From: a virus
IMG/VR virus record: IMGVR_UViG_3300024981_000245
DNA length: 64,000 nt
Direction: 5' to 3' (one strand)
Part shown: positions 4,083 to 45,790 of the stretch, in pieces
Numbering within the stretch: the stretch's first letter is position 1
Layout of the letters: every line of letters begins with the position of its first letter
Notes under the pieces: generated by a model
Told to the model about the DNA's origin: nothing
The model's input: the letters and a program-made list of their open reading frames with translations, nothing else
Database searches by the model: none
Made by a program: the position numbers and the translations under genes

Positions 4083-4136
4083 TGCCTTCTCCTCTCCTTG
4101 GCTCCCTGGTTGGTGGTGGTTACCACCGTACCAGGA

Positions 4137-4148
4137 TTAGTGGACTAA
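4137..4148. promoter_or_regulatory. Operator TTAGTGGACTAA
   Basis: Exact; just upstream of a TACGGT -10 on the minus strand. Confidence 0.85.
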
Positions 4149-4324: not shown

Positions 4325-4336
4325 TTAGTCCACTAA
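4325..4336. promoter_or_regulatory. Operator TTAGTCCACTAA
   Basis: Exact, intergenic downstream of whiB. Confidence 0.85.
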
Positions 4337-4631: not shown

Positions 4632-5138
4632 CTAGACCTTCTCCTTCTTCGGGTGAAACTGCCTGTGCAGCTCGAGCAACTCGGGGCTTCGGCGAATGGC
4701 GCTCCATGTGCGCTTCCACTCGAGCACGGCGTCTGCTGGCCGGTGAGCGTTGACGTCGAAGCGCTCGCGCAGATGGATGCCGCTACGCCCAATGTCCTCA
4801 GCGATGAAGGAGATCGGCATCCCCTCCTCAACCAGGGCGTAAATGCGCTCCAGCTCTTGCGGCGTGTACGGCTTCGCAACACGCGTGCGCATGTTCTCGA
4901 AAGCGCGGTCGACGGTCTTCTCGTTGACGCCAAGGTGCTCCGCAACTTGCTTGCGCGTCATCCCGCCGGCCACCAGCGAAAGAACATGGCGATCGCGAAT
5001 AGCCCGGCGGATGCTGGCAGCGTGGTTGCCGCCCGGAGGGAAGCGAATACCTCTTGCCTTCAGCTCAGCGGCGATATCCGCCTCGGCGAGACCGCCATCG
5101 TAGAGCGCGAGGATCAGTTCTCGGACTTGAAGATCCAC
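4632..5138 (-). CDS. Helix-turn-helix DNA-binding protein
   Basis: GMTRKQVAEHLGVNEKTV plus a second HTH-like segment. Confidence 0.7.
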   Translation of the reverse strand: MDLQVRELILALYDGGLAEADIAAELKARGIRFPPGGNHAASIRRAIRDRHVLSLVAGGMTRKQVAEHLGVNEKTVDRAFENMRTRVAKPYTPQELERIYALVEEGMPISFIAEDIGRSGIHLRERFDVNAHRPADAVLEWKRTWSAIRRSPELLELHRQFHPKKEKV

Positions 5139-5341
5139 GTTGCCTCCTCTTCTTCAACCGGGGTGATCGGCGTACACAGCGAAGCCACCCAGGAGGCACG
5201 CTGCCCGTCTGTCGTCTCGATGATGACGGTCGGCGTATCGGCATATGCGATCACACGGCCAGTCATGAAGACACCGCTCCCCTGTGCGAAGCGAGCTTCA
5301 ACCGGCTGGGCATCTTGTACCCACTTCCTGTAGTCGGTCAC
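5114..5341 (-). CDS. Hypothetical protein
   Basis: Coupled ORF. Confidence 0.55.
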   Translation of the reverse strand: MTDYRKWVQDAQPVEARFAQGSGVFMTGRVIAYADTPTVIIETTDGQRASWVASLCTPITPVEEEEATWIFKSEN

Positions 5342-5940
5342 TTCTCTTGCTCCCGCCCTTCCGAATAGTGATCGGGGCAGAATGAGCCCTCGTGTTTGCT
5401 GGACGGATCACCGCACCCTCGGCAGTACCCCTCCAGACGGTCTGACCTGAGCGGAACGTAAGTGCCCGCTATGTCAGTGGTCATCAACCGTTCCGCCGCA
5501 CGCTGACCGTAGGCGACGAGGCAAGACGGCGCGCCACTGTTCGCAGCGGCGCGCGTGCCGTCAGCCTTATGGAAGTAGAGCCGCCCATGAAGGAACAGCA
5601 CGCCCGTGGCCTTCTCCCAGACTTGCTTGACGAACCCTGCCGTCTCGGTCCGTGCGAAGATCAGTGCAATGCCGTCTCCGTGTGTAGCGAGCTTGTCGAG
5701 CCAGGTCCACGCTGCGAAGCTGTACGGCGGATTGAGCCAGACATGCCCATCCCACTCGGCCGCGAGGCCGTCCTCGGGAAGCTCTATGTGGCGGCTCGCT
5801 GTCGGCCATGGGCGCGGTGACGGTGCAGCGCACGGATCGAGATCGAAAGGTCCAAGCTTCTCGATTAGATCCGGTGGCGTCAGCCACGTCGTCGTCTCCG
5901 CACGAGCGGATTGGTGAGATCCCATCGCCCTTCCGCTCAT
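5338..5940 (-). CDS. Phage DNA N6-adenine methyltransferase (Dam-type)
   Basis: WLTP, FDLDPCA and catalytic WLNPPY motifs. Confidence 0.85.
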   Translation of the reverse strand: MSGRAMGSHQSARAETTTWLTPPDLIEKLGPFDLDPCAAPSPRPWPTASRHIELPEDGLAAEWDGHVWLNPPYSFAAWTWLDKLATHGDGIALIFARTETAGFVKQVWEKATGVLFLHGRLYFHKADGTRAAANSGAPSCLVAYGQRAAERLMTTDIAGTYVPLRSDRLEGYCRGCGDPSSKHEGSFCPDHYSEGREQEK

Positions 5941-6116
5941 CACTCGCTCCTGCCTTTTGTGTGGTTGGTCATCATCCATGAGGCTCCGGCTTGGAACGCG
6001 CCACGGAGCATCGCACGAATCTCGGCACGAGTGAAGGTGAGCCCGAAGTCGTCGTCGGGACGGTCCGGGTAACGACGCTCCGACTCAGCCTTCGCCACGG
6101 TGAACGGGTCAGGCAT
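5940..6116 (-). CDS. Hypothetical protein
   Basis: Coupled ORF MPDPFTV... Confidence 0.55.
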   Translation of the reverse strand: MPDPFTVAKAESERRYPDRPDDDFGLTFTRAEIRAMLRGAFQAGASWMMTNHTKGRSE

Positions 6117-6727: not shown

Positions 6728-7368
6728 GCTTCTCCCTCCCGTACCTGACGAGCACGCTCACGAAGCCAGCGGCGGACTGAGTACGTTGAGGTGTGCCCAC
6801 TCGACTCTGTCCCGAGGGCCTCACGGGCCTCGTGCGCCAGCGACTCGATCAGTGCCGCGTCATGGTTGCGCACCCACTCCCGGTAGAACGCCTGCGTGGC
6901 CTCGTCGCCGTCCACGTCCGCGAGATACACGGTCAACATGGCAAGACGCGCCTGACCGACATGGACGAGCTTCAACCGTTCGACTTCAGCAGCGAGGGCG
7001 TCGCGTTCCCGCTCGAGGTCAGCAACCTCAGACTTGCGCCCCCGCACGTGTTCCTCCGCGACCTCCAGCCGGGCCAGGAGAGCGAGCACGGTCGGCGGAT
7101 CGAACGTGGCGATGTGGGTGGCGTCGGCGGGGTCGAAGACATCGCCTCCGTGGTCGTCCCACGTCAGGCACTTGCTTGGGGTTGTCACGCTCGCCTGTGG
7201 AACCTGCGTCCCGTCTTTGTCCCAAATGACTCCCTCGACCGCATTCCACGGTCCCGGCGTTGCGGCTTCTGCGATTCCCCGCAGTACGGACAGATCAAGA
7301 TCAACCACGTCGCGCTCCCTCCATGCCTCGTGCATCTCATTGGTCGTAGGCGTGCAGTCAGAAGTCAT
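6724..7368 (-). CDS. Ead/Ea22-like protein
   Basis: AEAATPGPW...ATHIATFDPPTVLALL. Confidence 0.6.
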   Translation of the reverse strand: MTSDCTPTTNEMHEAWRERDVVDLDLSVLRGIAEAATPGPWNAVEGVIWDKDGTQVPQASVTTPSKCLTWDDHGGDVFDPADATHIATFDPPTVLALLARLEVAEEHVRGRKSEVADLERERDALAAEVERLKLVHVGQARLAMLTVYLADVDGDEATQAFYREWVRNHDAALIESLAHEAREALGTESSGHTSTYSVRRWLRERARQVREGEA

Positions 7369-8131
7369 CGTCAGCCTCCATGTAGGGGTTGAGTGGCGTC
7401 TCCAGGGCGCCGTCCAAGTAGCCGAATCGCTCGCTGGCGTCCCAGCCTTCTCGCCACGCCTGCGCCTTCACCTCACGGAGAGCGTCAGCGGGGGCGGCCG
7501 ACAGAGCCTTCATGACTGGCTCCTTGTGGTGGCTGTAGCCCGTCACTTGCCCGGCTATCTGCGCCTTCTCGATCACGGCGGCGAGATTGTCGCGTTCCCG
7601 CTCAGCCTCGGCAACCCGGGCATCAGCGATATCGGCTTCCTGCTCCATCTCGCGGCGATACTCCGACACCAGGTGAAGGGTGATGCCGACCGGATCGGTG
7701 ATTGGGGGTTGATCCCGGACCAGGACCGTGAGCGGTCCGAAGTAGTCGCGAGCGGTCCGCGCCCCATCGGTGTCCTCACCGATAGCTGCGACCACGCGGA
7801 AGAGACCTTCCTCCGCTGCGGCGAGGCGTTCCTGGAGTTCATCGCGCTCGGCGACGACGGAGTTGTACGAGTCGCGGCGCATCCACTCGACCCGCCCCGC
7901 CCGATGTGCGCCACCGTGCCCGTGCGGCAGCTCGCATTTCGGCGGCATCGGCGCGCACTCGCCCTCAGGGACGGGCAGCGTCATGCCCTCGTCCCAGCAT
8001 GACCCCTGCTCGTCGCGTTCCTTCACGAGCGCTTCGATAGCGTCAGCGAGCGCGTTGATCAGCGGCCCCTTGCTCACCCCGTGGCGCGGCCACACCCGAG
8101 CATCCGCGATCAGATCCGCGTAATTGTTCAT
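7358..8131 (-). CDS. Hypothetical coiled-coil protein
   Basis: Strong SD, 257 aa. Confidence 0.7.
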   Translation of the reverse strand: MNNYADLIADARVWPRHGVSKGPLINALADAIEALVKERDEQGSCWDEGMTLPVPEGECAPMPPKCELPHGHGGAHRAGRVEWMRRDSYNSVVAERDELQERLAAAEEGLFRVVAAIGEDTDGARTARDYFGPLTVLVRDQPPITDPVGITLHLVSEYRREMEQEADIADARVAEAERERDNLAAVIEKAQIAGQVTGYSHHKEPVMKALSAAPADALREVKAQAWREGWDASERFGYLDGALETPLNPYMEADDDF

Positions 8132-8161: not shown

Positions 8162-8173
8162 TTAGTCCACTAA
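8162..8173. promoter_or_regulatory. Operator TTAGTCCACTAA
   Basis: Exact, intergenic upstream of 8131. Confidence 0.85.
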
Positions 8174-14831: not shown

Positions 14832-15546
14832 CTCCTGGGTTGTGGGTGTGGTGGTTGAAGTTGTGGACGGTTATGCGGCGCGCTTCACGGGCTGCGCGAG
14901 GATCACGAGCCGATCCCCCACGGTGCCGAGCACGGGGCCGGGGAACCGGGAGTGTGCGGGCGCGGGAGTGAGCTGGAATCGCATAGGGAGATCCTTCGCC
15001 TTCGCGACGCGGGCGAGCGGCGCGGCGGACTTGGCGAGCTTGGCCAGCATGGCGGCACCGAGCGAGAACGGCTCGGCGTCGATCGTCGCGTCGGAGACCT
15101 CGGGAATGAGCCGGTCGACGGGCGGGAAGTTGCCCGTGAGGGCCACGAAGGTGCGCGACTCGACCGCGACGCCGCCGCGCGTTAGGGTGACCGTGTTGTC
15201 GGTGATCGTGAGCGTTTCTTCCACGTAGCGGACCGGCTTGAGCTTGCTCGCCCATGCGGCCACGTCGGCGGGGATGACCACGGACCAGTCAGGCTCAGCC
15301 GGGCCGCTCTCGCCGTGGCGCTCGACCGACTCGGCATAGGTGGTGTGCTCGAAGCGGGCGACGCTGTACCGGTCGGTGGCCGTGAGGTAGCGGTGGCCCA
15401 CCCGGACGCCTGTGATGATGGTCATCACCTTGTCGGCGGATGCGTGGACGGTGACCGCGGCGAAGCCGGCGACAAGCTCAGGCGTGAGGGGAAGAGTGAC
15501 GGACATGTGATGTCTCCTGGTGTTGTGGGTGTGGTTGAAGTTGTGG
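14832..15546. repeat. ~35-bp direct repeat (14832-14866 and 15514-15546) containing the SD, flanking the clamp-like gene
   Basis: ctcctgg(g/tg)ttgtgggtgtgg(tgg)ttgaagttgtgg. Confidence 0.85.
14871..15506 (-). CDS. DNA polymerase III beta-clamp-like protein (short, 211 aa)
   Basis: LTATDRYSVA and GNFPPVDRLIP resemble DnaN ATDRYRL and G.FP...LIP motifs. Confidence 0.6.
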   Translation of the reverse strand: MSVTLPLTPELVAGFAAVTVHASADKVMTIITGVRVGHRYLTATDRYSVARFEHTTYAESVERHGESGPAEPDWSVVIPADVAAWASKLKPVRYVEETLTITDNTVTLTRGGVAVESRTFVALTGNFPPVDRLIPEVSDATIDAEPFSLGAAMLAKLAKSAAPLARVAKAKDLPMRFQLTPAPAHSRFPGPVLGTVGDRLVILAQPVKRAA

Positions 15547-15554: not shown

Positions 15555-15599
15555 TTAGTGGACTAATCCGATTCTAGCGAAGGTGATTGCCGGTGTCTA
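15555..15599 (-). promoter_or_regulatory. Leftward sigma-A-type promoter with operator at the start site
   Basis: -35 TAGACA (15594-15599), 17 nt, -10 TAGAAT (15571-15576), exact operator 15555-15566; variant TTATTGGACTAA at 15604-15615. Confidence 0.8.
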
Positions 15600-17366: not shown

Positions 17367-17699
17367 TCAGGAGGCGCTCGGGGCAGTGAACGTGCGCACG
17401 ACATACGGCGAGCGCTCATCCGCGGCATAGCGCCGGCTAGCGTCGGCATCGGCCATGCTTTCGCGGCTGTAGGTGGCGATAGCCTGGTCCAGGCTGTAAC
17501 GTCCATCCCCGCGCCACGGGACAATGGCGAACGTAACGCGCACCTCGTGCAGCTCCCCGTGACACTTGGGGCAAGCCACGAGGCCATGCCAGCGCCGCGT
17601 GTCCGACTTGACGAGGTAGCGCGGCCCGTGCGGGCATGTACCCGCGTAAACGTGACGATATGCGATGCCATACTGCGCGCCATGCTTGATATCTGCCAT
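17367..17699 (-). CDS. Hypothetical protein with CxxC
   Basis: SD AAGGGA; CPKC. Confidence 0.65.
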   Translation of the reverse strand: MADIKHGAQYGIAYRHVYAGTCPHGPRYLVKSDTRRWHGLVACPKCHGELHEVRVTFAIVPWRGDGRYSLDQAIATYSRESMADADASRRYAADERSPYVVRTFTAPSAS

Positions 17700-17726: not shown

Positions 17727-17738
17727 TTAGCGCGCTAA
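17727..17738. promoter_or_regulatory. Fully palindromic operator variant TTAGCGCGCTAA
   Basis: TTAG-N4-CTAA upstream of 17699. Confidence 0.6.
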
Positions 17739-18276: not shown

Positions 18277-18322
18277 ATTCTACCCGATTAGTGGACTAAA
18301 TGCGTAGAGATTAGTGGACTAA
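18277..18322 (-). promoter_or_regulatory. Leftward promoter with two tandem exact operators (18288-18299, 18311-18322)
   Basis: Seen directly; operators are 23 bp apart. Confidence 0.85.
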
Positions 18323-18504
18323 ATGTGTAACGGATAGGTAACGGTGGGACGCGTACAGGGAGGGGCGTGGGCTGCGTGGCCGGCGCCCAACGCGGGGTGG
18401 TTTGAGGTGGCGGGGAAAGGTTCAGGATTTTAGGTGTTACCGGGACGTGGCATGGGGGCGCGGGCAGGACCCGTACATTTTTTACTCTGGCCAGGGATTT
18501 TCAT

Positions 18505-18675
18505 GGGGCTACAACCCACAAATCACCACATTTTTCACCCACCCAGCCAGCGCCCAGGGGCTACAACCCACGCCAGCAGAGCCGCAAACATCCCCACCAG
18601 CACCGCGAGGTCGAAGGGCCCGCTCCCCCGCGATTTTTCTTCAGCCCCGCACGCATCACCGGGGGCTATCACCCA
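18505..18675. repeat. GGGGCTACAACCCAC direct repeats (18505, 18557; degenerate third copy at 18662)
   Basis: Seen directly in a non-coding, strand-skewed region. Confidence 0.75.
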
Positions 18676-19076
18676 TCGCTGCACAGCGCGATGACGTCGC
18701 TCGTTGCCAACTGGAGGCGAGCCATCGCCGCATCAGCCTTCGCACTCGAGCCACCGGCCGCGATGCCCGCCATGTCCCGCGCGATGATCTGGAGCCCGTC
18801 GACCATCCGCGTCACACCATCGCGCAGCTCGGGGTTCACGAGCGCGTCGCGCTTGGTCCGCAAGTCGGCATTCATCTCATTCAACCGATCGCTCATCACC
18901 GTAGCCGCCTCGACGCTGTTGAGCGTCACGGCGTCCAAGCTCGTGGCGATCTTGCCCGCAGCGTCGTTGATCGTGCGGCACTCCTCGGCCAGCGTCGGCG
19001 TGCTGCTGGCGCACCCGGAAAGCGCCAGGGCGCCCACGATCGCGAGGGCAGGCAGAAGGGAGCGAGGTGTGGCCAT
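18669..19076 (-). CDS. Lipoprotein (leaderless)
   Basis: Signal peptide with lipobox LSGC; -10 TAGCAT 7 nt before ATG 19076. Confidence 0.75.
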   Translation of the reverse strand: MATPRSLLPALAIVGALALSGCASSTPTLAEECRTINDAAGKIATSLDAVTLNSVEAATVMSDRLNEMNADLRTKRDALVNPELRDGVTRMVDGLQIIARDMAGIAAGGSSAKADAAMARLQLATSDVIALCSDG

Positions 19077-19246: not shown

Positions 19247-19306
19247 TTAGTGGGCTAAATCCCACATAGCGTGGTACGCTGATCTCGGGCCGATTTAGTC
19301 CACTAA
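19247..19306 (+). promoter_or_regulatory. Rightward promoter bracketed by two operators (19247-19258 TTAGTGGGCTAA; 19295-19306 exact)
   Basis: Extended -10 TGG-TACGCT at 19275-19280 lies between them. Confidence 0.8.
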
Positions 19307-22940: not shown

Positions 22941-23227
22941 GCCTGGAAGCCACCGTGTATACGAAGACCGGCACCTATTGCGGTCAGTGCGTCACCACAA
23001 TCCGCGCGCTGGAGAAGGCTGAAATCCCCTTTGAGGAAGTACCCGGTATCGACCTGCCGGAGAATGCCAATCTGCTCCAGATGTTCAAAGACCGCGGGCT
23101 CACCTCCGCGCCGATCGTCTTCGTGAAGATCTGGGACACCGACAAGTCGTACGACATGTACGCCTGGGCGGGATTCCGCCCGGACAAGATCGCCTGGCTT
23201 AGTGGACTAATCAAGGAGGCAGCGTGA
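22937..23227 (+). CDS. nrdH: NrdH-like glutaredoxin
   Basis: TVYTK...YCGQC, SAPIV, WAGFRPDKI. Confidence 0.85.
   Translation: MSLEATVYTKTGTYCGQCVTTIRALEKAEIPFEEVPGIDLPENANLLQMFKDRGLTSAPIVFVKIWDTDKSYDMYAWAGFRPDKIAWLSGLIKEAA
23199..23210. promoter_or_regulatory. Exact operator embedded in the nrdH 3' end
   Basis: Encodes L-S-G-L; just before the next SD. Confidence 0.75.
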
Positions 23228-23740: not shown

Positions 23741-23982
23741 ATGACGAAAGTGTCAACCACCCCTCCCACTACACGTCTGATCCCAGTGGTATCGAGTGCA
23801 TCCAGATCACTCGGCATCGCAACTTCAATGTCGGCAACGCCATCAAATACCTCTGGAGAGCTGGCCTGAAGGTAGAGGGAGACCGCACGCTCGTCGAGAA
23901 GCAGTGCGAAGACCTGGAGAAGGCGATCTGGTACATCCAAGACGAGGTCGCCCGCCTCCGCTCCTCCTCACTCCAGCACTAG
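23737..23982 (+). CDS. DUF3310 (SaV-like) protein
   Basis: VNHPSHYT, GIECI, FNVGNAIKYLWRAGLK. Confidence 0.85.
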   Translation: MNDESVNHPSHYTSDPSGIECIQITRHRNFNVGNAIKYLWRAGLKVEGDRTLVEKQCEDLEKAIWYIQDEVARLRSSSLQH

Positions 23983-24150
23983 CCCAGATTCCAGGAGCAC
24001 CGCCCCCAGGGCCCTCTCTACGGCCCGGATGAAGATGCCCCTGTCGAAGGCGAAGCAGTGGTCTCCGGCTTCCAGAACGATGAAGTCGGGGCCACTGCTC
24101 AGCTCTACGCAGCGACCGCCGTCGAACTCCCTGATTGTGGTGGTGCTCAT
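23968..24150 (-). CDS. 60-aa protein under a LexA box (candidate antirepressor)
   Basis: SD GGGGAG; own promoter with SOS box. Confidence 0.7.
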   Translation of the reverse strand: MSTTTIREFDGGRCVELSSGPDFIVLEAGDHCFAFDRGIFIRAVERALGAVLLESGLVLE

Positions 24151-24167: not shown

Positions 24168-24183
24168 TCGAACATCTGTTCGA
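24168..24183. promoter_or_regulatory. LexA (SOS) box TCGAACATCTGTTCGA
   Basis: Perfect match to actinobacterial TCGAAC-N4-GTTCGA; 3 nt downstream of the -10. Confidence 0.88.
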
Positions 24184-24186: not shown

Positions 24187-24215
24187 AATCTATGCCACGT
24201 CACCGACATTGCCAA
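24187..24215 (-). promoter_or_regulatory. Sigma-A-type promoter of the 60-aa gene
   Basis: -35 TTGGCA (24210-24215), 17 nt, -10 TAGATT (24187-24192). Confidence 0.75.
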
Positions 24216-24348: not shown

Positions 24349-24372
24349 TACACTACACATTCAGTCCACTAA
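24349..24372 (+). promoter_or_regulatory. Promoter of the DGQHR gene with operator variant at the start site
   Basis: -10 TACACT (24349-24354); TCAGTCCACTAA (24361-24372). Confidence 0.7.
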
Positions 24373-24391
24373 TTCGTTCCAGGGAGCAAAA

Positions 24392-25795
24392 ATGGCCCAG
24401 ACCAAGGCCGCACCACGCCAAGCCGCCCCCACTGGCTACAGCACCGACACCCAGTTCTTCGCGTCTCGCTACCGCCAGGGTGGTCGAACCGTCTACTCGG
24501 TGGCCCTCACGCCCGACCAGATCATCAACAACATCCCGCGACCGAACCCCGAGCAGGCAAACCCCGGCAACCGCGCGATCCGGCCGGCGCACGCACAGGG
24601 CTTTGCGGACTACTACCTCCAGCATGACAACTGGATCATCCCCGGGCTCATCCTGCGCGCCCCGGACATCTTCGACTTCACCTCGGATCAGTCGGTCGTC
24701 ACCGGAGACATTGACTTCGGGATGCTCTCCTACCCCAACCGCAAACGCCTCGAAATCCAGATCCTCGATGGCCAGCACCGTATCCTCGGCTTCCACCTCG
24801 CGATTGAGAAGGTCGGCGAGTTGCTCGCCAAGGCGAAGGACCACCGAGCCCGGGCGCTGAAGACCGACCACAAGAACTCGCGTCTCGTGAAGGACGCCGA
24901 GGCCGAGGTAGAACGCCTCGAGCGCAAACTCGACCGCTTCCACCAGGAGCGCGTTTCTGTCGAGATCCAGGTCATCGACGACATCGCCTCATTCCGCCAG
25001 GCATTCTTCGACATTGCAGACAACGCGCTCGGTATCTCGGCATCCGTCAAGGCGCGCTTCGATAAGCGCAAGGTCGTCAACCGCGCCTTCGCGATCGTCG
25101 CTGAGCACCCCCTGCTCGTCGGCCGCGTCGACCCCGAGAACGACCGCCTCGGGCGCACGGGGCCGTACCTGCTGTCCGCACGCCATGTCGTTGAGATCAT
25201 TCGCGTCTCCAATGTAGGTATCGAAGGTCGTATCGGCGTCAAGCAGGAGAAGACGCTGAACGAGATCGAGGTGGCGAAGAAGGCTATGGCGTTCTTCGAT
25301 GCCGCTCTCAAGGCCTTCCCGCAGCTTCAGGCGATACAGGATGGCACGCTGACGCCGGATCGCCTGCGCCAGATCTCCATGCTCGGCTCGCCCCTGTTCC
25401 TGCGCATCCTCGCCGGCGCATACTACGAGTTGCGCGACCCGGTAAAGCATGCCTGGAGCGACGCGCAGGTCATCGAGTACTTTGAGGCAATCGGAAAGCA
25501 CCTCGCCGTCCCGCTGCACGCCAACACGATCTGGTTGAAGCACACGCCCGAGGACACCTTCAATGTGGGCGGATACGGCCCCAACGGTCGGCGCCAAGAC
25601 ATCATGAACCTCTCGCACGCGATGTGGGATTGGGCCCTGGATCACGCCGACTTCGTCTGGGCCGATCCCGAGCCTGCGCCGAAGCCCGAGCCGACCAAGG
25701 ATGAGCTGGAGATCGACTACAGCGACCTCGGCGACGAGGCCCTGGCTGAGCGCCTGAAGGCAGAAGACCTCGCATCGGGGATCAGCAAGAAGTAG
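24392..25795 (+). CDS. Orphan DndB/DGQHR-family (ParB-like fold) protein
   Basis: ILDGQHR, N-terminal GNR, RQAFFDI...S.SVKARFD. Confidence 0.85.
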   Translation: MAQTKAAPRQAAPTGYSTDTQFFASRYRQGGRTVYSVALTPDQIINNIPRPNPEQANPGNRAIRPAHAQGFADYYLQHDNWIIPGLILRAPDIFDFTSDQSVVTGDIDFGMLSYPNRKRLEIQILDGQHRILGFHLAIEKVGELLAKAKDHRARALKTDHKNSRLVKDAEAEVERLERKLDRFHQERVSVEIQVIDDIASFRQAFFDIADNALGISASVKARFDKRKVVNRAFAIVAEHPLLVGRVDPENDRLGRTGPYLLSARHVVEIIRVSNVGIEGRIGVKQEKTLNEIEVAKKAMAFFDAALKAFPQLQAIQDGTLTPDRLRQISMLGSPLFLRILAGAYYELRDPVKHAWSDAQVIEYFEAIGKHLAVPLHANTIWLKHTPEDTFNVGGYGPNGRRQDIMNLSHAMWDWALDHADFVWADPEPAPKPEPTKDELEIDYSDLGDEALAERLKAEDLASGISKK

Positions 25796-25810
25796 GGGAC
25801 ACGAATGGAA

Positions 25811-25845
25811 AGAACCCCGCCCGGAGCGATCACGGGCGGGGTTCT
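25811..25845. terminator. Intrinsic terminator after the DGQHR gene
   Basis: AGAACCCCGCCCG/CGGGCGGGGTTCT stem with T-rich tail. Confidence 0.8.
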
Positions 25846-25895
25846 TCTCGTGCAGACTCGGCTTACCTCCGCCAGTTTAGATCACAGAATCAGGA

Positions 25896-25918
25896 TTAGT
25901 CCACTAATCGGCTAGAAT
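25896..25918 (+). promoter_or_regulatory. Operator plus -10 TAGAAT; leaderless terS promoter
   Basis: Exact operator 25896-25907; -10 is 6 nt before ATG. Confidence 0.85.
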
Positions 25919-26452: not shown

Positions 26453-26467
26453 TTAGTGGACTAAAAT
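26453..26467 (+). promoter_or_regulatory. Operator fused to -10 TAAAAT; leaderless promoter
   Basis: Exact operator 26453-26464; 7 nt to ATG 26475. Confidence 0.85.
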
Positions 26468-28900: not shown

Positions 28901-28925
28901 TTAGCCCACTAATTCACCCTAAAAT
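28901..28925 (+). promoter_or_regulatory. Operator TTAGCCCACTAA plus -10 TAAAAT; leaderless portal promoter
   Basis: 7 nt to ATG 28933. Confidence 0.8.
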
Positions 28926-30490: not shown

Positions 30491-30534
30491 TCGTTTTAGT
30501 GGACTAATTCGCCCCTACCATTGAAAGTATGACG
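30491..30534 (+). promoter_or_regulatory. Operator plus -10 TACCAT leaderless promoter; 42/44 identical to 37621-37664
   Basis: Direct comparison. Confidence 0.88.
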
Positions 30535-33032: not shown

Positions 33033-33047
33033 TTAGTCCACTAAACT
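33033..33047 (+). promoter_or_regulatory. Operator fused to -10 TAAACT; leaderless promoter
   Basis: Exact operator 33033-33044; 6 nt to ATG. Confidence 0.85.
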
Positions 33048-33856: not shown

Positions 33857-33883
33857 GTCGTTTCGCTACACGGCTGCTACACG

Positions 33884-33911
33884 GAAGGCTCCCGGTTGCT
33901 CGGGAGCCTTC
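33884..33911. terminator. Hairpin beside attP
   Basis: GAAGGCTCCCG/CGGGAGCCTTC perfect 11-bp stem. Confidence 0.75.
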
Positions 33912-33945
33912 TTGCCGATGGCCGAAGATCCGCGTGATTCCGGGC

Positions 33946-34012
33946 TGGTAGCGGGAGCGGGGCTTGAACCCGCGACCTCACGATTATGAGTCGTGCGCTC
34001 TCACCAACTGAG
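33946..34012 (-). pseudogene. 5'-truncated tRNA with CAT anticodon (Met/Ile2 type), attP common core
   Basis: CTCAGTTGGTGAGAGC...CTCATAA...GGTTCAAG...CCA; 5' acceptor strand absent. Confidence 0.85.
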
Positions 34013-34143
34013 AAAAGGGGGCAAACTGGCTTGTTGCGAACTGTGCGCGAGGTCGCATGTTGCGCGTCTTTTCGCGGTTTTGGCGTTCGAGCGGGGTGCG
34101 GTTAGTGGCATCTTGTGGAGGGGTGCGGCTACACATTCGCTAC

Positions 34144-35148
34144 TCACTCGAGCGCCTTGAGCACGTCGCCGAAGTCCAGATCTCCGTGGTGCGCGTAGCG
34201 CTCGGTGACCGCGATCGATGAGTGGCCCAGGAGCAGCGAGACCTTTGAGATGGCCATCCCCGACTGGAGCAACCAGGAGGCGTAGGAGTGGCGAAGGTCG
34301 TGCACTCGACCACCGGTGTCGAGCGGCGCCCAGACGGTCTTTCGCCACAGTGAGAGCTGCACGGGGAAGATTCGGTCCCGAGCGTTCTCGGCGAATGGAT
34401 CCAGTCGCTCCGCCACCCACGCGGGGACGGGAACGTCCCGGATGGCTCGAGACTTCGGGTACGGGCGCATCTGCTTCGTGCGCGTGTCCCACACCTCCGC
34501 TACTCGAATGATCCGACGTACAGGGTTGTAACGGTGTGGCATAAGCCCCACGGCCTCCCCCCACCGCAGGCCAGTGCCAGCGAGCAGGGAGATGAGCGCC
34601 TTGTCCCGCTCAGCTTCGGTGTTGTCGACGAAGCGGTCGACCTGAGCGCGGGTGAAGTACCGAACGATGTCCTTCTCGCCATTCGGCAGCTTAAGCCGGT
34701 AGGCGGGGTTAGTGGACAGAATCTCCGCATCCACGGCCGCCGACAGGGAGGCGGCGAAGATGCTGACGATTCGGTAGACGCTCGACTCCGAGAGACCCGA
34801 CGCGCCAAGCTCGGCGGCCCATGCCTTCACTTCGTAGCGAGTGATGTTGGCGAGCGGCACCTTCTCCCACTTCTTGCGGATGTGGTTGTTGACCTGTGAC
34901 ATGTCCCGGCGCAGTGTCCCCGGGGCCACATTGCGCTTCGGCCACCACTCGTCGAGCCAGTCTCCCCACGCGCGGCCGCCCGCCTTCGGGTCGCGCCATC
35001 CCGGCTTGTTCGCCGCCTCCTCGGCATCGATCGCCTTCGCAAGCGCCTGTTCCCAGTACGGGTAGGTTCCTGCTGAGCGAGTCTTGCCGTCGGGCCCGCG
35101 GTAGAGCCCGCGGTACTTGCCGCTGGGCGACTTCTGATACCAAGCCAT
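34144..35148 (-). CDS. int: Tyrosine integrase (leaderless)
   Basis: TGLRWGE, HDLRHSYASW, LLGHS...TERY; adjacent attP; -10 TACTCT 6 nt before ATG. Confidence 0.95.
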   Translation of the reverse strand: MAWYQKSPSGKYRGLYRGPDGKTRSAGTYPYWEQALAKAIDAEEAANKPGWRDPKAGGRAWGDWLDEWWPKRNVAPGTLRRDMSQVNNHIRKKWEKVPLANITRYEVKAWAAELGASGLSESSVYRIVSIFAASLSAAVDAEILSTNPAYRLKLPNGEKDIVRYFTRAQVDRFVDNTEAERDKALISLLAGTGLRWGEAVGLMPHRYNPVRRIIRVAEVWDTRTKQMRPYPKSRAIRDVPVPAWVAERLDPFAENARDRIFPVQLSLWRKTVWAPLDTGGRVHDLRHSYASWLLQSGMAISKVSLLLGHSSIAVTERYAHHGDLDFGDVLKALE

Positions 35149-35182
35149 TGCGAAAGAGTAGCAAACTGGGCATCTGTCGGCG

Positions 35183-35203
35183 TATAGTGAATTAGTCCAC
35201 TAA
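35183..35203 (+). promoter_or_regulatory. xis promoter: -10 TATAGT with exact operator at the start site
   Basis: Operator 35192-35203. Confidence 0.8.
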
Positions 35204-35219
35204 TCCAGGAGGAGGAACT

Positions 35220-35408
35220 GTGATCTTGAAGATGTCGGAGATGGAGAGAAGGTCCGGCCTTTCGCGGTACACGCTCATGCGTGCGCTGAAAGCTGGCAAG
35301 CTCCACGGCATGCACACCGGCGTCAACGGCACATGGCGTGTCCGTGAGGAGTGCTTCGAGAACTGGCTCGAGGGCGAGCGGTGCGCCCATCAGGCGGTGG
35401 CGGCATGA
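35220..35408 (+). CDS. xis: Excisionase (MerR-like HTH)
   Basis: 62 aa, divergent from int, GLSRYTL...GKLHG...WRV. Confidence 0.75.
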   Translation: MILKMSEMERRSGLSRYTLMRALKAGKLHGMHTGVNGTWRVREECFENWLEGERCAHQAVAA

Positions 35409-36039: not shown

Positions 36040-36271
36040 GATCCGCACCACTCGCCAGGCGCGCGCGCTCCGCCCGATCGCTGCTGAGCGTGCGCGGCAG
36101 TCGCACTTCCACGCGGGAGATCGTGCCCTCCACCGCGGCATAACGTGGGGCGAGGTTGACATCCTTCTGATCGTGCCACGCAAGCCTTACAACAGTGCGA
36201 TCTTCCGCGGGCGCAGCGCAGCGTTCATCGGCAGCCTGGCTGACGTCCACCCCGTAGCCCCCATCGATTAG
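36032..36271 (+). CDS. Hypothetical protein
   Basis: Coupled ORF. Confidence 0.5.
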   Translation: MPRIRTTRQARALRPIAAERARQSHFHAGDRALHRGITWGEVDILLIVPRKPYNSAIFRGRSAAFIGSLADVHPVAPID

Positions 36272-36282
36272 CCCACTAAACT
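36268..36282 (+). promoter_or_regulatory. Operator TTAGCCCACTAA fused to -10 TAAACT; leaderless promoter
   Basis: 6 nt to ATG 36289. Confidence 0.82.
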
Positions 36283-37620: not shown

Positions 37621-37664
37621 TCGTTTTAGTGGACTAATTCGCCTCTACCATTGAAGGTATGACG
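37621..37664 (+). promoter_or_regulatory. Operator plus -10 TACCAT leaderless promoter (second copy)
   Basis: Exact operator 37626-37637; 7 nt to ATG. Confidence 0.88.
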
Positions 37665-39563: not shown

Positions 39564-41054
39564 ATGGGCTACATGACTGACTACCGCGGGTCCGGCTATC
39601 GTCTCGACGAGTTCATCCCTGAGCGCGATATGGGTGGTGTGCTCGCGCACTTCGACCCCGACGATGTTCCCGGGTCGAACGGAGCGAGCATCTCAACATG
39701 GGCGGCTCGCTGGGGCGGAGTCACCTTCAATCTCACCCCGGCGGCAAAGCCTACGGTCCTCGCAGCCGCGATCACCGATGCTGAGGGTCGGCCTCACAAG
39801 ATGGTGCGCTGCGCGACGTCCTCCTACCTGCGCAACGTCACGTCGATCAACGACACGGCTCCGTCCGGCGGGCATCCTCAGCCGCTGAGTTTCGTCTTCG
39901 TCATCCGGATCACGGCGTCCGCGGCGACGGCTTCCAACCATCTGGTTTTCGGCGCGTCTGGAGCGAACCTCCAACTCGCGCAGCAGGGCCAGGCCCTCTA
40001 CGTCAACGCCGGAACGGCGGGGAACGTCCAGGGGCCGGAACTCACCGACGGAGCCGTGCACGTCGTGGTCGCGACGATGACGACTGCTGGATGGCGGATC
40101 TACGTCGACGGCTATCTCGTCGGATCGACGTCGGGAACTCAGCAACAGGGCAGCGGCGTGCTCGGAAACCTCTTCATCGGCTCGGGCCTCGGAGTTGCTC
40201 TGCCCGCCGGAGTCACATTCGACTACGGCGACCTCATCGTTTCGACCTCGCCCATCACGCCGGCTCGAGTCGCCGCCGTCACGGCAGCGCTCGCGAAGAA
40301 GTGGGGGATTGCAACCACTGGGGCGCAACGCAACGGCGTCGACTTCGTGGATACCGTTGACTCGGCGGGCCAGCCCGTCCGTTACTGGATGCCTCCCGGA
40401 ACCGGGGCTGCTCCACTCCTCATCTGGTCGCACCCGTACACGCAGACGGAGCAGATCGCACATGGCGTCAATGTCTACCCGTGGGTGCACGCGGCTGTGC
40501 AGGAGGGGTGGATGGTCGCGGCATCTCGCATGCACGACGCGAACTGGGGTAACGACCAGGCGCAGACAGATATCGCGAATCTGCACACGCTGATCAACGG
40601 GATCCGTCCTGTCTCCAAGACGCTGCTCGTCGGTGGCTCCATGGGTGGTCTGGCGTCGATGATCGCGGCAGCCCGTGGCACCGTCCCGAACATCGCGGGT
40701 GTCGCAGTGAGTGACGCGGTGCTGGACCTCGTCTGGGCTTACACCGGCAACTCCGGAGGCTATACGTCCGCGATCAACGCTGCGTACGGCATCTCTGCCG
40801 TCGGCGGCATTCCGGCGGCGAACGATCCGATGCAGATCTCGGCATCAGCATTCGGTGGTCGGCGCTACCGCTTCTACGCGTCGAGTTCTGACGCGAGTGT
40901 CGCGAAGTCGGCCAACGTCGATGCGTTCCGGACGAAGATCGGATCGGTTGCCGCCGAAGCGGGGCTGGTGACGCACAACACGAGCGGGCATCTGAATGCG
41001 GGAGCCTTCCCTCCCGCAGATCTTGTCGCGTTCGCGAAGCGGTGCGGACTCTAG
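39564..41054 (+). CDS. LamG/ConA-like lectin domain plus alpha/beta-hydrolase (esterase)
   Basis: HVVVATM...IYVDG; GGSMGG nucleophile elbow; C-terminal D and H. Confidence 0.7.
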   Translation: MGYMTDYRGSGYRLDEFIPERDMGGVLAHFDPDDVPGSNGASISTWAARWGGVTFNLTPAAKPTVLAAAITDAEGRPHKMVRCATSSYLRNVTSINDTAPSGGHPQPLSFVFVIRITASAATASNHLVFGASGANLQLAQQGQALYVNAGTAGNVQGPELTDGAVHVVVATMTTAGWRIYVDGYLVGSTSGTQQQGSGVLGNLFIGSGLGVALPAGVTFDYGDLIVSTSPITPARVAAVTAALAKKWGIATTGAQRNGVDFVDTVDSAGQPVRYWMPPGTGAAPLLIWSHPYTQTEQIAHGVNVYPWVHAAVQEGWMVAASRMHDANWGNDQAQTDIANLHTLINGIRPVSKTLLVGGSMGGLASMIAAARGTVPNIAGVAVSDAVLDLVWAYTGNSGGYTSAINAAYGISAVGGIPAANDPMQISASAFGGRRYRFYASSSDASVAKSANVDAFRTKIGSVAAEAGLVTHNTSGHLNAGAFPPADLVAFAKRCGL

Positions 41055-42334
41055 CTACCGGCCATCGTCGGCACCATCGTCGTTGATGCGGCGATGCTCG
41101 CGCTCTCCAGTTTCCGAAGGCTGGACAGGGAGAGCGCGAGCATCGGCCATGCCACCCAGGAGATGTAGGAGAACGAGTAGAAGTTGGTGGGAGACTCAAG
41201 CCAGCCGAGAACAACGAAAGTAACGGGCCAGGGCGTCAGCGCCCAATATCCAAGACGGCCCAGTCGCCAGGAGTGGCGGAGCATGACGAGCCACAGGACG
41301 ACGAGGGCAGCTAGCCCGACGCCTCCCGCCAGTAGCAAGGTGTTCACGGCCATATTGTGACCGTGGTAAGCGAGCGCGCCAAAGTTGGATTGGCTTTCGG
41401 ATATTCGGTAGTAGACGTCAACGCCGAAGCCGAGGATCGGACTTCCGTGCGCGAACTCAAGGGACCGCGACCAGATGTATCCGCGCCCGGAATAGGCAGC
41501 AGGATCGTTGTTGAGAAGCACGATGAGGAACGTGATTGGAACCACAGCAACGTAGATGCCAATCAGAAGGACTCTGGCGAGGAAGTCGGCGCGATGCGTC
41601 AACACGTACCAGATTCCGGCGACCAGGAGTCCGAGAATTCCAGCTGTGAGGCCGGTACGTGATCCGGTCCAGAGCAGTCCGAAGAGGACGATGACCACGC
41701 TGATTGCGCGTGACCTCGGCTTCTCCAGGAGAAGTACCGTGGGGAGTCCGAGAGCTAGTGTCTGTCCGAGATTGTTCGGGTGGTAGGTCGGCCCGACAAG
41801 GAGAGTGTCGCCGATAAACGCCTTGGCATCCGGTACGCCGGCTTGGCTCATCAAGGCGACTGACGGCAGAAGAATGCCCATGGCTATCGAGACGACAGCA
41901 ATGACGACGGTGAGGCGTCCGATAAGTCGGATGAGCCGAATCGGATCGTCGTAGCTTGCGATCAGGACGCCGATCAGTGCGTAGATGATCACCGCTACGC
42001 CGACGGTGTGGGACGCAATGTAGCTCGACACTGTAACGGCAGCGCAGGGAGCTAGATAGAGCCAGAGCCACCGGGGGAACCTCAACGTCCTTCGAAGCGC
42101 ATCATGAACAAACGCGGCCGCCGTGGTGACCACGACGAGTGCTTGCAGGATGGCTTGCGAGGTTGCGCTGAGAGAGGTCTGAGCGAAGGTCTCGCCGAGC
42201 TGCGCTACTGGCCTGCTACCGAGGGTGACCTGAAGCAAAGACGGGATGAACGCGTAGCCGAAGGCGAAGATGATCGCCGCTCCCGCGATACTGCGGTATG
42301 CCGCGCGGGGCTTAGACCTCGTCATCACGTGCAC
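41051..42334 (-). CDS. O-antigen ligase / Wzy-like polysaccharide polymerase
   Basis: About 10-12 TM helices; HPNNLG, TGSRTG, YSGR.YIW, PILGFG, HGHN. Confidence 0.85.
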   Translation of the reverse strand: MHVMTRSKPRAAYRSIAGAAIIFAFGYAFIPSLLQVTLGSRPVAQLGETFAQTSLSATSQAILQALVVVTTAAAFVHDALRRTLRFPRWLWLYLAPCAAVTVSSYIASHTVGVAVIIYALIGVLIASYDDPIRLIRLIGRLTVVIAVVSIAMGILLPSVALMSQAGVPDAKAFIGDTLLVGPTYHPNNLGQTLALGLPTVLLLEKPRSRAISVVIVLFGLLWTGSRTGLTAGILGLLVAGIWYVLTHRADFLARVLLIGIYVAVVPITFLIVLLNNDPAAYSGRGYIWSRSLEFAHGSPILGFGVDVYYRISESQSNFGALAYHGHNMAVNTLLLAGGVGLAALVVLWLVMLRHSWRLGRLGYWALTPWPVTFVVLGWLESPTNFYSFSYISWVAWPMLALSLSSLRKLESASIAASTTMVPTMAGS

Positions 42335-42518
42335 TCTTGTTCGTTCTGAACTGAGAGAGACGCTCTACCAACGCCGCTCCGATCGCAACCAGAACGAATA
42401 CGAGCATGGCGCACATCGCGACTGTCGTGATGACCGTTCCGGGGCCTGCAAGGAGCGTCACTAAGATCGCAGCAGCCACGACGACCAGCGAGGCTCGCAT
42501 CAGAGTGTCCGGCTGCAT
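42312..42518 (-). CDS. Small two-TM membrane protein
   Basis: Hydrophobic 68 aa. Confidence 0.5.
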   Translation of the reverse strand: MQPDTLMRASLVVVAAAILVTLLAGPGTVITTVAMCAMLVFVLVAIGAALVERLSQFRTNKSARDDEV

Positions 42519-42626
42519 AGACGAATCATGTCATGCGCACGTTGCGTGCGTGTGACGGGGCCCCTTGAGCGCTGGGCGATCGCGGTGACTTCCACGGGGT
42601 GCGCCAGCTAAACGCTGTAGTCGCGG

Positions 42627-43367
42627 TCAGATCCCGAGAGCCTGAATGGCGCTGACCAGGCGGGTTGCGAGGTAGTCGTAGCCCGCCTGGTTCGGGTGGT
42701 ACTTGTCGTCTTGGAGAAGGCCGTCTGCGGCCATCGTGCTCATCCACGACTCGCCAAGGGGGTCAATCGTCATCGCCCCAAGATCACGTGCGGATTCAAG
42801 GATGATGGTGTTCATCTCTTCGACGTCGCTGGTCACGTCCGGGTACGGCCAGTAGATCCCGACGACGACGACCTTGGCGTCCGGTGCCGCGGTCTTCGCA
42901 TTCCCGATCGTCTCTCGCACGGCTGCGCGGAATGCCCCGGGATTCTGCGGGTAGAGCTTCACGTCGTTGAGTCCGCCGGAGATCATCACCACGGAACTCT
43001 TCGCTGGCACACCGCTCGAGCGGCCCGGATATGGCGCCCTGGCGCCGCCTCCACCGTCAGCAAGGTAGCCGGTTCCCGATTGACCCATCGCGAACATCTG
43101 CCAGTTCATGGCCTTCGAGACCTGCGCCGGAATCGTGTTCGCGGTTGCGCCATAGCCTTCGATGTACGAGTCCCCAAGGAACGCAGCGCGAGGAAGCTGC
43201 GTTTGGGTCGGCATGGGTTTGGGCGTGAAATCAGCGACGTTGGGCGCGGCCGGGCCGGATCGAAGAGCGGCCACCGTCAACGCGATCGCGAGGATCGCGA
43301 GAACTGCGACACCAGCGATCGACCAAGGCAGCGCTGGACTGCGCTTCGAGCGACGTCGTTTCCCCAT
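42627..43367 (-). CDS. Membrane-anchored SGNH/GDSL hydrolase (leaderless)
   Basis: FLGDSY, GTGY, GGLND, DKYHPNQAGY; N-terminal TM; -10 TAACCT 6 nt before ATG. Confidence 0.88.
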   Translation of the reverse strand: MGKRRRSKRSPALPWSIAGVAVLAILAIALTVAALRSGPAAPNVADFTPKPMPTQTQLPRAAFLGDSYIEGYGATANTIPAQVSKAMNWQMFAMGQSGTGYLADGGGGARAPYPGRSSGVPAKSSVVMISGGLNDVKLYPQNPGAFRAAVRETIGNAKTAAPDAKVVVVGIYWPYPDVTSDVEEMNTIILESARDLGAMTIDPLGESWMSTMAADGLLQDDKYHPNQAGYDYLATRLVSAIQALGI

Positions 43368-43434
43368 GCCGCCAGGTTAGCGGGTCCATACTGTCGCTCG
43401 AACCTGACCACTGCTCCATCGATAGTTCAGCATC

Positions 43435-43485
43435 ACGACACAGCCCCCGGCTGGCCCTCACGGGCCGGTCGGGGGCTTTCGTCGT
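43435..43485. terminator. Long GC-rich hairpin
   Basis: AGCCCCC...GGCCC-TCAC-GGGCC...GGGGGCT-TTC. Confidence 0.6.
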
Positions 43486-43601
43486 GCGCGAACACCGGCC
43501 GCTGTGTCCGAGGGGCGTCGTAGGCTGGGAGGCTCCCAAAGACGGGAGCGGCCCGAACCGGTGTTGGAGCACCGGCCGGGCCTTGGCAACATCCAGGATG
43601 A

Positions 43602-44522
43602 GTGGAGATCGCCGTGAGCGACACTACCGCGCCAACGCGCACCCAACCCAGCCCCCTCGCCGAGATCGCCCGCACAGGGTTTCTCGACCGGTACACCGCC
43701 GGCACCCGCCGCCTCTACGAACTCGACCTGCGGCTGTTCTTCGCATGGTGCGCGGAGCAGCAGCTCGACCCGCTCGACGCACGCCGACCGCACCTCGAAG
43801 CATTCGGCCGCCACCTGACCATTGAGCGGGGCAACAGTCCCCGCTCGGCGTGCCGGCGCTTGCAGACGATCCGATCCTTCTACCGTCTCGCCGTCGTCGA
43901 CGAACTCATCGACCGTGACCCGACGATGCTTATGCGCATGCCCAGGTGGCACGTCGACCGGTCCACCATCGCCTACCTCACCCCAGCGCAAGTCGGGCAA
44001 CTGCTCCATGCGGCAGAGACCATGTCGCCGGCGCACCACGCGCTGATCGCGTTGATGGCGATGCTCGGCCTCCGAGTGTCCGAAGCGTGCGCCGTGCAGA
44101 TCGAAGACCTCACCGAAGATACGCTCGGCTACGTCGTCCTCACCGCGACCCGCAAGGGCGGGAAGACGTCACGGATGCCGATACCCGTCCCACTGCTCCG
44201 CATCCTCCGCCGCGCGATCGGTGACCGCACGACCGGGCCGGTGATCCTCACCCGTACGGGCCGCCAGCAGAACCGCCGCGGCGCGTACGACTGGTTCAAA
44301 CGCGCCGCCACGCGCGCAGGACTCCCCGACAACGTGCACCCGCACACGCTCCGCCATGCCGCGATCAGCGCGCTCGTCAACGCCGGCGTACCCATGCATG
44401 AGGCGCAAGAGTTCGCCGACCACTCCGACATCCGCACCACCGCGCACTACTACCACCGACCCCTCACCCTCGACCAGCACGGAGCGCACGTCACCGCGAG
44501 ACTCTTCGCCGCCGCAGCCTAG
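43602..44522 (+). CDS. Second tyrosine recombinase (XerC/D-like)
   Basis: SAM-like N-terminus; LGLRVSE, RKGGK, HTLRH, ADHSDIRTTAHY: all catalytic residues present. Confidence 0.92.
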   Translation: MEIAVSDTTAPTRTQPSPLAEIARTGFLDRYTAGTRRLYELDLRLFFAWCAEQQLDPLDARRPHLEAFGRHLTIERGNSPRSACRRLQTIRSFYRLAVVDELIDRDPTMLMRMPRWHVDRSTIAYLTPAQVGQLLHAAETMSPAHHALIALMAMLGLRVSEACAVQIEDLTEDTLGYVVLTATRKGGKTSRMPIPVPLLRILRRAIGDRTTGPVILTRTGRQQNRRGAYDWFKRAATRAGLPDNVHPHTLRHAAISALVNAGVPMHEAQEFADHSDIRTTAHYYHRPLTLDQHGAHVTARLFAAAA

Positions 44523-44580: not shown

Positions 44581-44595
44581 TTAGTCCACTAAACT
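44581..44595 (+). promoter_or_regulatory. Exact operator fused to -10 TAAACT
   Basis: Upstream of the tail chaperone. Confidence 0.85.
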
Positions 44596-45779: not shown

Positions 45780-45790
45780 TCCACTAAACT
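45776..45790 (+). promoter_or_regulatory. Exact operator fused to -10 TAAACT (tape measure promoter)
   Basis: Operator 45776-45787 contains the chaperone stop codon. Confidence 0.85.

Follow-up and report, generated by a model that had tools for sequence, protein, structure and literature searches.

The virus sequence IMGVR_UViG_3300024981_000245 from IMG/VR (64,000 nucleotides (nt); hereafter, the window, taken at its full length) holds a dndB-like gene (24392–25795, plus strand) that encodes 467 amino acids (aa) from its ATG and was identified by Pfam family PF14072 and AlphaFold2 (AF2) models. Because window bases 1–4313 recur at 59688–64000, the window is a wrapped genome of 59,687 bp. 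The phage is a temperate Microbacteriaceae siphophage. We propose that DndB may be the trans-acting factor for the TTAG(T/C)SS(A/G)CTAA palindromes spread over this genome and the repressor that silences the prophage. This is the best single explanation that we can offer, and we put its chances a little short of even. It draws chiefly on related phages, in which the type of the repeated motif follows the DndB clade and not the phylogeny of TerL or the portal protein.

Operator types and their co-variation with DndB

The palindrome TTAG-N4-CTAA occurs 24 times in the window, corresponding to 23 unique sites because the window wraps, whereas 0.04 would be expected by chance. The form TTAGT(GG/CC)ACTAA accounts for 17 of the 23. 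Nearly all sites lie 6–54 nt 5' of a gene start, with the last TAA of the motif forming part of a TAnnnT -10 element or with the motif ending 5–8 nt before the -10, and many of the genes behind them are leaderless. Measured against the -10, the register ranges between -3 and +8 nt. Since the motif is found in both orientations on one strand, the site is, in functional terms, a 5-2-5 palindrome. The overlap with core promoters at a variable register fits an operator, as judged from the sequence. The sites cover both early arms and xis, and two of them (at 4325 and 19247) fall outside promoters. The motif is essentially absent from 401 Microbacteriaceae genomes, and it is therefore not a host promoter signal.

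To compare motif types, the promoters of 18 relatives were read and the types were set by eye; 15 loci were typed and three were left unassigned. Type A, TTAGTSSACTAA, comprises the window, L001, L006, and L230. Type B has a leaderless promoter word, TAGACTCCGCS, and a few TAGCTAGCTAA palindromes (L007, L008, L012, L229, and L231), type C has TTAAG-n-CTTAA / ATTAAG (L009, L011, and L235), and type D has TAGC-NN-GCTAA (L028, L031, and L032). In the five type-B loci, a 13-nt word (CCTAGACTCCGCS) ends 2–3 nt before the start of many late genes and looks like a -10 (TAGACT) with a fixed discriminator for leaderless mRNAs.

In the DndB tree, each of the four types forms one clade (supports of 98/97, 98/100, 94/91, and 100/100), and three type changes suffice, which is the minimum possible and was matched by 0 of 200 shuffles. 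The TerL and portal trees require five type changes each. Types A, B, and C are each split in the TerL tree, where the window nests with the type-B L012 and L229 at a support of 98, and types A and C are fully scattered in the portal tree. DndB identity to the window is 56–66% for type A and 45–53% for type B; TerL identity to the window is 72–75% for L012 and L229 (type B) and only 57% for L230 (type A). The terS of the window and the neighboring 60-aa gene group with type C, at weaker support. The original prediction, made from the letters of the window alone, had proposed to look in related phages for DGQHR genes accompanied by repeated operators; in the relatives read here, motif type tracks the DndB clade. 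Such co-variation would be the pattern expected of a regulator and its sites.

The dndB promoter itself carries, in types A, C, and D, a palindrome that is a degenerate copy of the phage's own type. The type-A promoters (the window, L001, L006, and L230) have TCAGTCCACTAA, TTAGTCCACTAC, and TTAGTCCACTGT, that of the type-C L009 has TTAGCGGCTAA, and those of the type-D L032 and L028 have TTAGCCAGCTAG and CAGCTAGCTAA.

All Microbacteriaceae relatives found via DndB share the gene order small reverse gene, dndB, terS, terL, and portal. Relatives were also sampled via TerL, which is unbiased with respect to DndB. The cassette of the small gene and dndB was present in all four relatives with a TerL identity of at least 57% (57–72%), at one fixed position, and was lacking in three relatives at 51–54%. 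It is likewise missing from the lytic Clavibacter phage CN1A, which has a tRNA and terminators at that spot; the relatives without it include two that are tRNA-bearing or low-GC. The gene goes with the prophage-type members, and the lytic-looking relatives are without DndB. As relatives at 50–54% TerL identity lack dndB, it is not needed for packaging.

The dndB gene, its product, and other candidate regulators

A candidate -10 element upstream of dndB (TACACT, 24349–24354, plus strand, read from the sequence) is followed after 6 nt by the degenerate operator TCAGTCCACTAA (24361–24372, one mismatch), and then by 19 nt including a GGGAG ribosome-binding site and the ATG; relatives have equivalent degenerate sites before dndB. 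The promoter escaped a simple sigma-70 consensus scan, and for this reason we treat the -10 as no more than a candidate. Folding revealed an intrinsic-terminator-like hairpin with a T-rich tail 3' of the gene (25813–25849, plus strand; hairpin at ~25813–25843), with a free energy of -36.2 kcal/mol (z -5.0) that none of 200 shuffles equaled. Given the upstream elements in front and the strong hairpin behind, dndB is plausibly a monocistronic unit. The predicted arrangement of a 467-aa DGQHR gene with an operator variant 6 nt past its -10 and a terminator was thus confirmed, with the -10 kept as a candidate.

Divergent from dndB is the 60-aa gene (23968–24150, minus strand), which has homologues at the equivalent place in relatives and whose product matched no family. 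A promoter scan found a sigma-70-like promoter for it (TTGGCA-17-TAGATT, 24187–24215, minus strand). Over the start region of this promoter, 3 nt downstream of the -10, lies a perfect actinobacterial LexA-type box, TCGAACATCTGTTCGA (24168–24183), which is the sole LexA-box match in the window. LexA-like boxes with 1–2 mismatches are present in the equivalent intergenic region of L009, L011, L041, and L010. The 60-aa gene is a candidate for an SOS-controlled antirepressor or a cassette partner.

DndB matches PF14072 with an E value of 1.2e-22 (80.9 bits, cutoff 29.1) and falls just below the cutoff of TIGR03187 (DGQHR; 58.3 vs 58.85 bits). In the DGQHR motif, D126, Q128, H129, and R130 do not vary across 38 homologues, of which at least 90% also keep G127. 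From its N terminus, the protein comprises a domain of the DGQHR/ParB-DUF262 fold, then a coiled-coil hairpin and a helical C-domain, and it ends in an acidic tail. The AF2 model of the whole protein has a predicted local distance difference test (pLDDT) score of 89, with the DGQHR motif in a beta-rich N-domain, a helical hairpin at residues 128–185, and the helical C-domain, which reached a pLDDT of 91.8 when modelled alone (residues 186–430). The N-domain fold matches ParB-like PadC over 100 aligned residues (Z 7.0) and, at Z 6.7, the DUF262 domain of SspE, and the AFDB structural matches for DndB include ParB and Noc. The GmrSD enzyme BrxU gave the only C-domain match at Z of at least 5, through its helical domain (Z 6.0 over 160 aligned residues). 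Viral structural look-alikes are GmrSD-N/DUF262 and 'DNA-sulfur modification-associated' proteins, and the best reviewed AFDB match is YopQ of SPbeta (E 3.4e-7), with a weak similarity (template modelling score 0.33).

No nuclease family was matched in DndB, whose model ends in the helical domain and acidic tail. With no nuclease domain it is not a restriction enzyme, and the models suggest that it is a nuclease-less member of the DndB/DUF262 group. Sequence searches of the PDB with the protein and its profile gave nothing meaningful, Foldseek against the PDB returned no match for either DndB model, and there was no match by tblastn against INPHARED phages and no hit in PHROGs. DNA binding and nucleoside triphosphate (NTP) binding are both documented in the DndB/DUF262 family (PMC4507180; 10.1101/2025.10.10.680097), and a DndB-like protein binds ATP/GTP (10.1101/2025.10.10.680097).

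The gene was predicted to be an orphan in a phage without a cI-like repressor, and both parts agree with our searches. None of the phage products had the size of DndC/D/E or was recognised by Pfam as a dnd partner, and a search for DndC (TIGR03183) in five host genomes with related prophages returned nothing. Pfam scans of ~95 phage products revealed no XRE, cI, or S24 protein and no family of a ParA- or KorA-type partner. Besides DndB, the scans matched two helix-turn-helix (HTH) proteins (4632–5138, strong; 58323–58706, weak), a WhiB-like protein, Xis (HTH_17), and two tyrosine recombinases. Both HTH proteins are encoded in the early-left operon. The first of them (HTH168) has strong HTH and sigma-70 region 4 matches; its gene is preceded by a small overlapping open reading frame (ORF), belongs to the same operon as the WhiB-like gene, and has no gap for a promoter of its own. 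HTH168 and the second protein (HTH127) are not in the type-D prophage G004, which uses TTAG..CTAA-family sites, and a search of 30 kb of the other well-covered type-A phage recovered neither of them.

The non-structural proteins conserved across the lineage are PrimPol, a helicase, the RuvC-like resolvase, the WhiB-like protein, and DndB; judging from these sequences, DndB is the only lineage-wide conserved candidate regulator. In the 30 kb of the other type-A phage, DndB, with 64% identity, is well ahead of every other non-structural protein in conservation, and no homologues of the control-region proteins of the window were found there.

Further candidates for the repressor or for the role of DndB were rejected. 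The gene at the classical cI position (18669–19076, minus strand), which is divergent from the early-right operon across two operators, encodes a lipoprotein, recognisable by its signal peptide and LSGC lipobox, and is likely a superinfection-exclusion gene. The 176-aa ORF (56904–57434, minus strand) is conserved lineage-wide and RuvC-like, with its true start probably at residue 32, and the second tyrosine recombinase is not conserved in relatives. A DpdB-like role of DndB in 7-deazaguanine modification was dismissed since no TGT/DpdA or que genes were among the Pfam hits.

A possible repressor mechanism and its alternatives

In a lysogen, DndB would be made from its own monocistronic unit and, probably as a dimer, would bind the ~22 full sites, which overlap the spacer or the -10 in almost all early, late, and xis promoters, and block RNA polymerase there, while limiting its own synthesis via the weaker one-mismatch site at its own transcription start. 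Induction would proceed via the divergent 60-aa gene, which the perfect LexA box would keep off until DNA damage, and the nucleotide state of the DGQHR pocket may contribute. In its widest form, which we regard as tentative and clearly below an even prospect, the proposal is that a DndB-family ParB/DUF262-fold NTPase without a nuclease serves as the master immunity repressor across this Microbacteriaceae phage lineage. It would autoregulate via a weakened site, act through a 12-bp palindrome on ~20 mostly leaderless promoters, and be released by the LexA-controlled 60-aa antirepressor and possibly by nucleotide state, and its specificity would have diverged to give no fewer than four types, against a background of freely exchanged structural modules.

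In the literature library searched, no paper on a DndB-type phage repressor was found. If the proposal is true, nucleotide-binding proteins of the ParB/DUF262 fold would be a new class of protein in phage immunity, and the lysis-lysogeny decision could be tied to the NTP pool of the cell. The many orphan DndB genes of prophages, plasmids, and islands would acquire a concrete role, and the four co-varying operator types would offer a natural series on how the fold reads DNA. For annotation, such prophages would otherwise score as repressor-less. Should it be wrong, the pairing of dndB with a small LexA-controlled gene is conserved all the same, and this module would still call for an explanation.

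The proposed system would be akin to the DndB repressor and to a KorB-like or L5-like global silencer. In experiments, DptB/DndB of Salmonella enterica Cerro 87 bound palindromes of the form TACG-N10-CGTA at its own promoter, and it acts as an autorepressor of the dndBCDE operon (PMC4507180). The phage protein shares with it the family PF14072, the DGQHR motif, and a palindrome on its own promoter, but the phage is without dndCDE, its protein is ~100 aa longer with a coiled-coil insert and an acidic tail, its putative regulon comprises ~20 promoters rather than one operon, and its site is 5-2-5 instead of 4-10-4. KorB of RK2 is a ParB-CTPase global repressor with 12 OB sites of the core TTTAGCGGCTAAA (PMC11790492). 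Common to both are a ParB-fold N-domain and many short TTAG..CTAA-type palindromes over the replicon (23 sites in the phage); the OB core is strikingly like the sites of this lineage, and the dndB promoter of L009 has a near-match, TTTAGCGGCTAAT. However, KorB reads DNA via a ParB-type HTH that is absent from phage DndB, no KorA or ParA partner was found in the phage, and KorB often acts at a distance by sliding whereas the phage sites are on core promoters.

In mycobacteriophage L5 (Cluster A), the small HTH repressor gp71 acts on ~30 operator/stoperator sites in the early and late regions, which are asymmetric and oriented with transcription. One repressor with dozens of short sites in a temperate actinophage is also what we propose for DndB, although the sites here are palindromic, in both orientations, and on separate leaderless promoters. 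In SPbeta, the recombinase-fold MrpR (YopR) is the master repressor on the repeated SPBRE, and the ParB_N_Srx protein YopQ is co-expressed in lysogens. A repeated element at many prophage promoters and a ParB-fold protein, with YopQ as the best reviewed structural match, are shared features, but the binder there is MrpR and not YopQ, no conserved MrpR-like partner was found in the phage lineage, and dndB, being plausibly monocistronic, would not be co-transcribed with a recombinase-fold repressor. With the GmrSD family (BrxU, SspE, and DndI), the N-domain and the helical middle domain superpose at the Z scores given above for SspE and BrxU, but the HNH/DUF1524 nuclease domain of that family has no counterpart in phage DndB.

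The following observations weigh against DndB as the repressor. A ParB/KorB-type HTH was sought in the C-domain model and not found. The original prediction had reasoned that ParB-fold proteins bind palindromic sites; the ParB-fold N-domain is indeed present, but the DNA-reading HTH of ParB and KorB is absent, which precludes a direct transfer, and no recognisable DNA-binding domain, which the prediction had proposed to look for by structure modelling, was found in the AF2 models. No cluster of type-specificity residues was found in DndB, and its most conserved stretch (residues 201–240) is invariant with respect to motif type. The typing itself was by eye and incomplete and covered a small sample, the type-B relatives keep DndB with a non-palindromic leaderless promoter as their dominant repeat, and the co-variation could reflect linkage to another early-region regulator. 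In L041 and L010, the LexA-like box is 27–50 nt before dndB and lies farther from the small gene than from dndB, which is awkward for a simple antirepressor model. A search of RNA sequencing runs for the phage found none, and in SPbeta the deletion of yopQ does not induce the prophage. Outside the lineage, homologues at 40–46% identity are orphans next to HsdM, a TIR effector, DUF6361, integrases, and housekeeping genes and are not in prophages; a small gene in reverse orientation often precedes them. Other clusters of the ESM Atlas show the DndB domain joined to NERD or HEPN nucleases, which points to a conflict-system module. The predicted role as an immunity repressor thus stands in part: it gains from the co-variation, the own-type site at the dndB promoter, and the lack of DndB in lytic-looking relatives, and loses from the missing HTH and the orphan homologues outside phages.

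These homologues, the nuclease fusions, and a fold that equals GmrSD, SspE, and BrxU minus the nuclease would also suit a different explanation, which we consider unlikely but the most serious of the alternatives. Here, an unseen small phage protein or one of the HTH proteins (4632–5138 or 58323–58706) would bind the palindromes, and dndB would be just a member of the regulon, forming with the divergent small gene a mobile defence, counter-defence, or toxin-antitoxin-like cassette before terS. There is room for such a binder among the ~50 phage proteins without a family assignment, HTH168 has the HTH and sigma-70 region 4 matches described above, and TTAG..CTAA palindromes are present in many unrelated elements in which no DndB was found. 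However, a mobile accessory should not follow motif type better than its immediate neighbors do, nor would it be expected at a position fixed in every relative with a TerL identity of at least 57%. The distribution of HTH168 and HTH127, which are lacking in G004 and not found in the 30 kb of the other type-A phage, also speaks against them, and PADLOC gave only a partial DndB match and called no system.

The absence of a recognisable DNA-reading domain in the DndB models would be accommodated if DndB were an accessory lysogeny factor, like YopQ or like KorB with KorA, that is, an NTP-gated clamp or co-repressor that assists another, sequence-specific repressor and is by itself neither enough for immunity nor indispensable to it. 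YopQ is the closest reviewed structural look-alike and is co-transcribed with the master repressor in lysogens without being essential for repression, the authors of the MrpR work propose extra factors for specificity, and the ParB-fold clamps KorB and BisD work with partner proteins. On the other hand, no lineage-conserved partner repressor was found, the second tyrosine recombinase (43602–44522) is 18 kb off and absent from relatives, and the similarity to YopQ is weak. We regard this role as improbable.

Still less probable, and in our view rather remote, is a function of DndB in packaging or late-gene expression, as its place directly before terS, which is the usual place of late activators, HNH, and ParB-like nucleases, might suggest. 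This position is invariant, and of the 23 sites, 13 are in front of genes for the virion, the tail, or lysis, but relatives at 50–54% TerL identity package without DndB, an Endonuclease_7/HNH gene already lies between terS and terL, and dndB, having its own terminator, is outside the late operon. The sites are also on both early arms and xis, and their register of -3 to +8 nt fits occlusion better than activation. Least probable of all is that the palindromes are promoter elements for a host or phage sigma or accessory factor and that no such repressor exists: the 3' TAA of the motif is often within a TAnnnT -10, type-B relatives have a long conserved non-palindromic promoter word instead, and a WhiB-like factor is conserved lineage-wide, but the dyad symmetry, both orientations on one strand, the variable spacing to the -10, the two sites outside promoters, and the near-absence of the motif from Microbacteriaceae genomes make this highly implausible.

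Operator positions and other features of the phage

On the left side of the genome, operators are found 54 nt before the leftward gene 3744–4082 (TTAGTGGACTAA, 4137–4148), directly after the stop of the WhiB-like gene (TTAGTCCACTAA, 4325–4336), 30 nt before the leftward gene 7358–8131 (8162–8173), and 48 nt before the leftward gene 14871–15506 (15555–15566). A variant, TTAGCGCGCTAA (17727–17738), is 27 nt before the leftward gene 17367–17699. The promoter of the leftward 86-aa gene has two operators, at 18288–18299 (gap of 5, TAGAAT, 6 nt, ATG) and 18311–18322. The divergent early control region includes TTAGTGGGCTAA (19247–19258), and the site at 19295–19306 overlaps the -10 TAATCT of the early-right operon; another (23199–23210) is 13 nt before gene 23224. 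Between the promoter of the 86-aa gene and the lipoprotein gene, a 346-nt non-coding stretch contains two direct copies of GGGGCTACAACCCAC ~53 nt apart (18503–18575).

The terS promoter (25896–25907) has the layout gap of 5, TAGAAT, 6 nt, ATG, and the next two sites overlap the -10 TAAAAT of the Endonuclease_7 gene (26453–26464) or precede the portal gene (28901–28912). The others lie before gene 30529 (30496–30507), over the -10 TAAACT of gene 33054 (33033–33044), between int and xis (35192–35203), and before genes 36289 (36268–36279), 37659 (37626–37637), and 44629 (44581–44592), the tape-measure gene 45825 (45776–45787), and genes 52133 (52112–52123), 52855 (52824–52835), and 56413 (56395–56406).

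Beyond this lineage, a co-occurrence scan of the 401 genomes, which lacked statistical power, gave six sites in G354 and three in G078; neither of these genomes had DndB or homology to the phage, and TerL was found at 1e-40 or better in only one of 301 genomes. The six copies in G354 (TTAGCCGGCTAA) are on contigs C1, C3, C5, C9, C10, and C13, one each and at least two at contig ends, and look like a dispersed repeat, e.g., an insertion-sequence end, and not a prophage. A paired-palindrome scan of metagenomes mostly recovered the perfect palindrome TTAGTCGACTAA in unrelated low-GC contigs, and these matches have no bearing for or against DndB. Among such contigs, L183, L133, L143, L201, and L205 have many TTAG(T/C)CG(A/G)CTAA just before genes, without a DndB profile match. 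L183 (13.7 kb) is a phi29-like podophage with 22 palindromes, a Phi29-type capsid, connector, Gp16, and a protein-primed polymerase. From these sequences, TTAG..CTAA palindromes appear to be a widespread regulatory word.

In other Actinomycetota, the orphan dndB homologues of L030 (11374–12642), L014 (11354–12928), and L025 (13159–14715) directly adjoin a CAP12/Pycsar-type TIR protein, a type I HsdM, and a DUF6361 protein, a setting that is defence-island-like.

The phage genome has a GC content of 62–65%. Its leftward replication arm encodes Prim-Pol/DUF3987, a helicase, an Ead/Ea22-like protein, a Dam-like methylase (the ORF at 5338–5979, minus strand, a Dam-type N6-adenine methyltransferase), HTH, WhiB-like, and the RuvC-like resolvase. 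The rightward arm begins with small early genes, followed by terS, the Endonuclease_7 gene, terL, portal, capsid, tail, and lysis genes. The nearest TerL is that of Clavibacter phage CN1A (50% identity), the protein homologues are named from Microbacterium, Agromyces, Leifsonia, and Frigoribacterium, and the INPHARED isolated phages gave no DNA-level match to 20–30 kb. The DNA sequencing runs with the phage are from bioreactor and wastewater metagenomes.

The temperate lifestyle read from int and xis in the original prediction holds, as Int (34144–35148) and Xis (35220–35408) are real and an integrated copy with host flanks was found in a 66-kb wastewater contig. The tyrosine integrase and HTH_17 Xis are located between the head and tail genes, in an int/xis/attP cassette (33857–35408; 19465–21404 in L002). 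In the integrated copy, the host genes Peptidase_M23 and Inositol_P come after the last head-side gene, and the related prophages of four genomes have the same split, with the tail genes at one end and the head genes at the other. The tail region 41051–44522 includes a leftward Wzy_C (O-antigen-ligase-like) gene and a GDSL/SGNH gene, followed by the second tyrosine recombinase (Phage_integrase, 1.7e-29).

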